From: a virus
Lineage: Duplodnaviria > Heunggongvirae > Uroviricota > Caudoviricetes
Strand: one strand, 5' to 3'
IMG/VR virus record: IMGVR_UViG_2541047828_000005
Location: 1-47,619 of that record
DNA length: 47,619 nt
Within the stretch, counting starts at the first letter, position 1, and each line of letters opens with the position of its first letter. The notes under the pieces were generated by a model. It worked only from the letters and a program-made list of their open reading frames with translations, was not told the origin of the DNA and ran no database searches. Positions 4,353 to 5,223 of the stretch are shown piece by piece. A program made the translations under genes and the position numbers.

Positions 4353-4384
4353 CTGAAAAAATATTTAAGGCCACAACTGTGGCC
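4353..4384 (-). terminator. Rho-independent terminator downstream of secreted-protein moron
   Basis: Palindrome GGCCACA/TGTGGCC at 4369-4384 followed on minus strand by U-rich run. Confidence 0.55.
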
Positions 4385-4394
4385 CTAAATTTAC

Positions 4395-5093
4395 TTACGG
4401 CACTGCGTTAATCAGATTACAAATACCTCTTTTGGCAGGGTCTGAATTCAACTTCTGGAAATTGGCGTTCAACATAGCAGTGTGTAAGTGATTCTCAACC
4501 TCAAAGAATAGGTCGATTTTGCCCTCTTTGGCTGCATGTTTCTTCCAAACATTCACTTGGTCATCAGCAATACGACTGGCGCAAGTGAACAAGAACGAAC
4601 TGCCTCTAGGAATGGATGTCGTGCTGTAATACTCACCATCTACTTCTACATATTTAGCTCGGAATGACTCTAAGGTTAGCTTATTGCCGTTCTTGACCGA
4701 CTTAACTTCTGCCTTACTTGTTTCTTCCTGCTCTTCAGAATGTTTCTGCGTCGACGTGGGTATCTCATTGGCCGCTGTTACGCTGACTGAACTCCCCAAA
4801 CCTTTGAGGCCATTAATTTGGATAAGATAAGCCAGCTCCAGAGCCTTATTATCAGTGAGTTTTCCACGCATATTTACCCACTGACGTTGAACCATTTTTA
4901 GGGTGTCTGCGTTCTCTGGGTTTTCTTTGAGGGCACTAGAATAGGCAGAGCTAAGCTGTTCGTCTAATTTTGACAGACGTTCGTTATCGCAGATTTTATG
5001 TTCGATTGCTGTCGAAGCCTTTTGGCAGTCAAAGCTGGCTGCAAATGCACCCGGCGATGCCACTAACAATGATGCCAGTAGGATATTTTTCAT
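4395..5093 (-). CDS. Secreted DUF1311/LprI-like protein (moron), ~232 aa
   Basis: Signal peptide MKNILLASLLVASPGAFA; mature N-terminus ASFDC...IC.D..LS..D..L...Y...QRQW motif typical of DUF1311; GGAG SD before ATG at 5093. Confidence 0.65.
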   Translation of the reverse strand: MKNILLASLLVASPGAFAASFDCQKASTAIEHKICDNERLSKLDEQLSSAYSSALKENPENADTLKMVQRQWVNMRGKLTDNKALELAYLIQINGLKGLGSSVSVTAANEIPTSTQKHSEEQEETSKAEVKSVKNGNKLTLESFRAKYVEVDGEYYSTTSIPRGSSFLFTCASRIADDQVNVWKKHAAKEGKIDLFFEVENHLHTAMLNANFQKLNSDPAKRGICNLINAVP

Positions 5094-5223
5094 ATTCACT
5101 CCATAAATACAAAAGCGCATTACTATAGCACTTAACCGATCGCTTATCTCGCCCGTTCGTCATTCTTATCTAACCAGAACATGCGGCTGCCACAGCACAT
5201 GTCGAGGATCGTTGCATGTCCAG

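Follow-up and report, generated by a model that had tools for sequence, protein, structure and literature searches.

The 47,619-nt stretch of DNA analysed here (the window; IMG/VR record IMGVR_UViG_2541047828_000005, Caudoviricetes) contains a small gene on its minus strand, gene 1 (5093 to 4395; ATG 5093-5091, stop 4397-4395), which encodes 232 amino acids beginning MKNILL. Judged by sequence comparison, gene 1 is accessory ('moron') cargo of a lambda-type Escherichia coli prophage integrated beside ybhC, and it very probably forms an exported accessory cassette of the PF07007 (LprI, formerly DUF1311) family. For its mechanism, we tentatively suggest that the product is a periplasmic neutraliser of incoming peptidoglycan hydrolases. 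Taking description and mechanism as one composite reading, we lean slightly towards it. On this reading, the product would not inhibit c-type lysozyme in the way that the MliC domain does. A second gene in the window, gene 2 (41614-42306, plus strand), begins with the same kind of signal peptide and N-terminal module.

Gene 1 is a real gene under selection. Of 5426 complete E. coli genomes, 107 contain the stretch at full length. Phage ev099 (98%) has it too, as does the phage-plasmid SSU5 of Salmonella (84% identity at the nucleotide level in gene SSU5_101), and the counterpart in RefSeq, WP_024236194.1, shows 99.9% identity at the DNA level. A search of 5.8 billion proteins returned 52 relatives, the near-full-length ones being 71-100% identical, and many relatives lie on ~110-kb contigs or phage-plasmids of Salmonella, Citrobacter, Enterobacter and Klebsiella. 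Against SSU5_101, the ratio of nonsynonymous to synonymous substitution rates (dN/dS, Nei-Gojobori) is 0.15 overall. Residues 19-96 and 139-232 have low values (0.10 and 0.05, respectively), and residues 97-138 a much higher one (0.62), with dS of 0.44-1.4 underlying the two low values. A linker that evolves almost neutrally thus connects two domains under constraint. Illegitimate recombination nearby, seen in a methyltransferase stub described below, and an insertion sequence element 1.2 kb away could be taken to mean that gene 1 is a decaying or spurious open reading frame (ORF) with no function. That explanation is effectively refuted by selection, given the two low dN/dS values and the intact copies in over 100 genomes of E. 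coli as well as many phage-plasmids, and we give it almost no credence.

The product of gene 1 is predicted to be exported by a Sec-type signal peptide. Inspection of residues 1-18 (MKNILLASLLVASPGAFA; 5040-5093, minus strand) revealed an n-region, MKN, with one basic residue, a nine-residue h-region, ILLASLLVA, with a mean Kyte-Doolittle value of 2.97, and a c-region, SPGAFA, that fits the -3/-1 rule (A-x-A cleavage motif). Cleavage by signal peptidase I is predicted between AFA and ASFDC, and the mature N-terminus ASFDC (A19-C23) is invariant across 18 homologues. On inspection, no lipobox ([LVI][ASTVI][GAS]C) was found in the protein of gene 1 or of gene 2, and the lipoprotein reading was rejected on this ground. 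The mature product would be a soluble periplasmic protein in three parts. Residues 19-96 (4806-5039, minus strand) form the N-terminal LprI/DUF1311-type module, predicted to be helical, with C23, C35, L43/L47, Y51 and QRQW72. Residues 97-138 (4680-4805, minus strand) form a Ser/Thr/Glu/Lys-rich linker, which appears flexible and fast-evolving; it carries indels between aligned homologues and has an AlphaFold2 confidence (predicted local distance difference test, pLDDT) of ~24. Residues 139-232 (4398-4679, minus strand) form a rare, uncharacterised C-terminal domain with invariant C171 and C225, a pair that is probably disulfide-bonded.

Family membership rests on a Pfam match to PF07007 of 25.7 bits (gathering score 22; E value 1.6e-5). 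Both the profile match to DUF1311 and the canonical Sec signal peptide, as predicted, bear out the sequence-only reading of the window, an earlier reading that had proposed a secreted DUF1311/LprI-like moron here. PHROG 4675, a family of unknown function, matches gene 1 end to end (E 1e-94). The C-terminal domain gave no match in Pfam, PDB or PADLOC, and profile searches with both families and with this domain against PDB sequences returned nothing meaningful. Its rarity shows in an exhaustive HMMER search, in which 12 of 1.84 billion representatives matched at E<=0.001, two of them probably spurious repeat proteins; the profile of the domain retrieved mainly fragments from the 5.8-billion database. 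Three credible distant relatives (P0080, P0086 and P0083) combine a signal or lipoprotein sequence and a linker with the same C-terminal domain and its two conserved cysteines. For a further distant homologue, from Yersinia (P0082), the neighbourhood shows serine recombinases and the end of the contig, and no effector.

Gene 1 is flanked by the P22-type abc2 and DUF2737 genes on one side and by xis and int on the other, and it is oriented in the direction of transcription from the early-left promoter, pL. A GGAG Shine-Dalgarno (SD) sequence (5102-5099, minus strand) lies 5 nt before the ATG. Farther upstream is a putative extended -10-like element, TGcTATAGT (5130-5122, minus strand), so that the putative expression signals span 5099-5130. 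In SSU5 this element is retained (TGaTATAGT), and similarity is lost farther upstream; it is from this element that we infer a promoter for gene 1. A longer, 241-amino-acid version starting at an in-frame ATG (5120) was also considered; it was rejected, having no SD, overlapping the -10 element and departing from the 232-amino-acid start used by RefSeq. Directly after the stop codon, the terminator scan located an intrinsic terminator (4354-4390, minus strand) composed of a G+C-rich, 12-bp hairpin (4390-4363; GGGCCACAGTTGTGGCC) and an ATTTTTT tail, and its stem is kept in ev099 and SSU5. The same scan counted seven terminator-like sites in the 2.5-kb region, compared with 2.1 expected from shuffles. 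The SD, signal peptide, ASFDC mature start and terminator listed in the sequence-only reading can thus all be located, on the minus strand, which that reading had left implicit. Since the cassette carries its own -10-like element, SD and terminator, transcription of gene 1 probably does not depend on pL and would also take place in the lysogen.

Comparison with other genomes defines the cassette. The match to SSU5 spans exactly 4364-5162 of the window in an otherwise unrelated genome. Upstream, similarity begins ~70-75 nt before the ATG and includes the -10-like element and the SD; downstream, it stops just past the terminator stem. The same cassette occurs in SSU5 and ev099 with differing neighbours, the upstream DNA, gene and terminator going together as one unit. 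In strain ST540, a sister prophage that shares the lambda-type integrase, the excisionase and the att site on the ybhC side lacks gene 1; its equivalent slot holds DUF4752, DUF551 and other genes. Because a prophage at the same ybhC site does without it, gene 1 behaves as a moron. It has two of the features of one, a downstream terminator of its own and presence or absence between related phages with movement as a unit. The exact bounds of the SSU5 match and the empty ST540 slot uphold the earlier description of a self-contained unit.

The non-coding region that had been described upstream of gene 1 does exist as a spacer, but most of it is a remnant of another gene. Positions 5227-5150 (minus strand) hold a stub, 26 codons long, of a phage gene for a class I S-adenosylmethionine-dependent DNA methyltransferase, as indicated by a RefSeq pseudogene annotation and by tblastn, where the stub aligned with the N-terminal ends of methyltransferases that are intact in Erwinia phage vB_EhrS_49, in prophages of Klebsiella and in E. 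coli phage PhiR42_1. The stub overlaps the DUF2737 stop codon (GTGA) and is cut off where the LprI cassette starts, and in the lambdoid copies of gene 1 the cassette is preceded by this stub. Since relatives of the stub are intact in other temperate phages, the spacer is best read as the scar of a gene replacement, and the stub, by the sequence evidence, marks where the cassette displaced the body of the methyltransferase gene.

In the mechanism suggested above, a weak promoter of its own would drive gene 1 in the lysogen, and the protein would bind and neutralise, in the periplasm, a peptidoglycan-cleaving enzyme arriving from outside. Candidate targets are a muramidase-type effector of a type VI secretion system (T6SS) or the enzyme with which a superinfecting phage pierces the cell wall. 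Acting as an orphan immunity factor, or as an exclusion factor resembling T4 Spackle, the protein would benefit the lysogen. Several observations weigh against this proposal. The PF07007 match covers only residues 23-78 (profile positions 1-70 of 106), and the N-terminal module has two cysteines (C23 and C35), not four, with two further invariant cysteines in the C-terminal domain; conserved cysteines are a feature of the family (PMC7933661). There is no structural support for an inhibitor fold: the AlphaFold2 model of gene 1, built with 18 homologues, had a mean pLDDT of 49, was unusable and was left out of the fold searches. This low value stems from a shallow alignment in which all homologues are >=72% identical. 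No PADLOC defence model matched, and no cognate effector was found beside gene 1, where the neighbours (DUF2737, Abc2 and a DpdA-like gene) are all phage genes. Gene 1 also lacks a base composition distinct from its neighbours, another feature of morons (GC content 0.42-0.45 versus 0.44-0.47), and a two-hexamer promoter scan upstream of the gene found nothing, with no evident -35 element. Given this neighbour-like composition and the pL-like orientation, read-through expression during lytic growth is equally possible. Finally, similar two-domain proteins with an LprI-like N-terminus occur in strictly lytic T4-like phages (RB49 and Aeromonas phages), and this is a poor fit with a role that benefits only the lysogen.

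The last two points lead to an alternative in which gene 1 is an early-left (pL) operon gene for lytic growth, acting in lysis timing, protection from lysis from without or exclusion of secondary infection. Its position between abc2/DUF2737 and xis/int in the pL orientation, its GC content and the similar length of its structural relatives in lytic phages all suit this idea, and the presence of several terminators across the N-antiterminated region means that a terminator alone is no proof of autonomy. On the other hand, the promoter-like element and terminator accompany the gene in SSU5 too, an unrelated setting, and a general muramidase blocker made late would counter the phage's own lysis. 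The prophage endolysin belongs to PHROG 90 (endolysin) and is annotated in a related prophage as a glycoside hydrolase family 24 (GH24) lysozyme, which itself argues against a broad muramidase blocker produced late. On balance, we regard a dedicated lytic function as rather unlikely.

The remaining alternatives concern the host cell wall, and they turn on what PF07007 proteins are known to do. RefSeq names both gene 1 and gene 2 "lysozyme inhibitor LprI family protein", and gene 1 could accordingly be a genuine inhibitor of host c-, g- or i-type lysozymes and a factor in virulence or gut fitness. Its match to a Pfam family entitled 'Lysozyme inhibitor LprI' and the binding of lysozyme by Mycobacterium tuberculosis LprI (Sethi et al. 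2016, cited in PMC7933661) speak for this view. However, M. tuberculosis LprI consists of PF07007 plus an MliC domain, the latter of which was reported to be sufficient for lysozyme inhibition (PMC7933661), and the Pfam search found no MliC/PliC (PF09864), Ivy or PliG domain in either of our proteins at E<=1, nor does either carry a lipobox. The name goes back to MliC, which neither protein carries; the label is an annotation transfer and should not be taken as a statement of function. Among comparable proteins that have PF07007 alone, only Salmonella ScwA has been tested; it is periplasmic and has no MliC domain, its deletion left sensitivity to lysozyme/EDTA unchanged, and its authors state that lysozyme inhibition by PF07007 itself is without experimental support (PMC7933661). 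We consider this alternative improbable, and of the lysozyme-inhibitor-like character suggested by the sequence-only reading, the family match holds, but the connotation of an inhibitor is weak. ScwA controls the levels of MltD, Slt and AmiC (PMC7933661), and gene 1 might likewise modulate the host's peptidoglycan-remodelling enzymes (lytic transglycosylases and amidases) for envelope homeostasis in the lysogen, instead of blocking enzymes of foreign origin. An export signal, conserved cysteines and the lack of a membrane anchor are common to gene 1 and ScwA (PMC7933661). Nevertheless, PF07007 is C-terminal in ScwA and N-terminal in gene 1, the rest of the two proteins is unrelated, and no ScwA-like sequence was present among the homologues of gene 1, so that a ScwA-like role also seems unlikely to us.

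Gene 2 is linked to gene 1 through the module that the two genes share. It has a probable start at 41629 (225 amino acids) and encodes a signal peptide, an N-terminal module beginning ASFDC, a linker and an alpha/beta C-terminal domain unrelated to that of gene 1. From inspection and hydrophobicity, cleavage is predicted between SFA and A, giving an ASFDC mature end. The module has four invariant cysteines (C26, C38, C81 and C86), and the cysteine within the signal peptide varies among family members. The proteins of genes 1 and 2 are 30% identical over approximately the first 120 residues (E 5e-11), and their profiles align over columns 1-85 (hhalign probability 97.5%, E 5.5e-12). A full-length duplication was rejected, as the similarity ends at about residue 85-120 and the C-terminal halves are unrelated. 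The earlier suggestion of a second, paralogous copy in the tail region is thus correct for the signal peptide and the ASFDC module, but paralogy is confined to the N-terminal ~85 residues. Gene 2 alone has no Pfam match at E<=1 and is tied to PF07007 through hhalign to the gene 1 family and through a PF07007-positive relative (P0076); PHROG 33858 matches it with an E value of 1e-137. Two relatives of gene 2 (P0073 and P0075) carry the same signal peptide and ASFDC module on a third, unrelated C-terminal domain that ends in a cysteine-containing motif, and at the level of sequence these are evidence for shuffling of the module among C-terminal domains.

Gene 2 fits the textbook moron better than gene 1, having a low GC content (0.34-0.37 versus 0.49-0.57 in its flanks) and its own terminator. 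The latter (42356-42384, plus strand; hairpin 42356-42375, AAACCCGCTTCGGCGGGTTT, followed by a T-run) was located by the terminator scan and in the sequence. Gene 2 follows baseplate and tail genes, and its terminator immediately precedes a tail-fibre/tailspike gene (ATG 42402). Just six of the 5426 E. coli genomes contain gene 2, as does Klebsiella phage vB_Kpn_Chronis, and Klebsiella phages RothC/D and several E. coli prophages with conserved flanks either lack it or have a replacement in its position. As a separate observation, the tail region of our prophage is 98% identical to that of vB_Kpn_Chronis, although the host here is E. coli.

One prophage therefore carries two exported proteins, as predicted, with a shared N-terminal module and differing rare C-terminal domains, each in its own terminator-bounded cassette. 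At least three types of C-terminal domain were seen on the ASFDC module, two of them within this prophage. With this in mind, we can speculate that the LprI-like module is a generic periplasmic 'handle' that is joined by a disordered linker to interchangeable, rare specificity domains, creating polymorphic, phage-borne orphan inhibitors. Their targets would be T6SS muramidases or amidases, or the tail lysins of rival phages. This extension is a long shot at present; if true, prophages and phage-plasmids would supply their hosts with a swappable repertoire of envelope immunity. Should the narrower reading of gene 1 be correct, namely orphan immunity or exclusion directed against cell-wall-degrading effectors, it would tie prophage and phage-plasmid cargo to T6SS and interphage competition in Enterobacteriaceae, and the large PF07007 family would gain a testable activity.

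Two other loci in the window deserve mention. Just downstream of the LprI cassette, a gene at 3388-4188 (minus strand, 266 amino acids) has no Pfam or PADLOC match and matches PHROG 887, 'queuine tRNA-ribosyltransferase' (E 2e-102). Its product may be a DpdA-like transglycosylase as used in 7-deazaguanine DNA modification. Ahead of this gene lie another terminator-like hairpin, the second after that of gene 1 (4229-4208), and a spacer rich in A+T (GC content 0.36). Elsewhere, the ORF at 23918-25333, which follows the large terminase gene, matches Pfam Phage_portal_3, and RefSeq gives its ST540 counterpart the name 'anti-CBASS protein Acb1 family protein'; this name is seemingly a doubtful annotation, or else the portal is joined to an additional domain.

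Gene 1 is already catalogued, both under its RefSeq family name and as PHROG 4675; its anatomy is usual for lambdoid cargo, and no new kind of system is implied. Its likeness to the PF07007 family (type member M. tuberculosis LprI, Rv1541c; structure 3GI7, Pseudomonas putida PP0307) consists of an above-threshold profile score, predicted export, the N-terminal series C-x11-C, L..LD..L...Y and QRxW, and a predicted helical fold. MliC/LprI proteins are typically anchored as lipoproteins, whereas neither protein here has a signal for such an anchor. ScwA (SL1344_0490 of Salmonella Typhimurium) is similar in being a horizontally acquired, soluble periplasmic, disulfide-stabilised PF07007 protein with no MliC domain (PMC7933661). 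It differs in having PF07007 at residues 185-271 of 275 and in being chromosomal, whereas gene 1 is phage-borne, with PF07007 at its N-terminus and an unrelated remainder. The T6SS immunity proteins of the DUF1311 type resemble gene 1 in combining a signal peptide with PF07007, in periplasmic action, in residing on mobile DNA and in having 'orphan' copies (PMC12981562, PMC8867033, PMC9796082). Compared by description only, these are mostly single-domain proteins (~146 amino acids in SED_RS06230) encoded in T6SS islands beside their effector, whereas gene 1 is prophage-borne, has a second domain and has no effector as a neighbour. No cognate effector was found beside gene 2 either, where the neighbours are baseplate and tail-fibre genes, and the two genes would at best be orphan immunity genes.

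A weaker likeness, limited to the signal peptide and the N-terminal module, links both genes to NCBIfam NF049887 (A1S_1983, a putative colistin-resistance protein of Acinetobacter; E 1.6e-5 for gene 2 and 9e-3 for gene 1). With scores of 24.5 bits (gene 2) and 15.6 bits (gene 1) against a cut-off of 150 bits, neither belongs to that family, which is another case of the N-terminal module fused to a different C-terminus. Classical lambdoid morons, a concept of Juhala, Hendrix and colleagues, include bor and lom of lambda and the morons of HK97 and HK022. Like them, gene 1 is an extra gene with a terminator and a putative promoter set among conserved genes, missing in sister phages and encoding an envelope protein; unlike them, it shows no GC deviation of the usual kind and has a promoter only by inference. 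The periplasmic inhibitor Spackle (gp61.3) of phage T4 blocks the tail lysozyme gp5 and brings about superinfection exclusion. No sequence relationship to Spackle was detected, the PHROG matches of genes 1 and 2 being to families of unknown function only, and the analogy is a functional one. Still, Spackle is likewise a small, exported, helical phage protein, and it offers a precedent for the periplasmic blocker of an incoming peptidoglycan hydrolase that gene 1 may encode.
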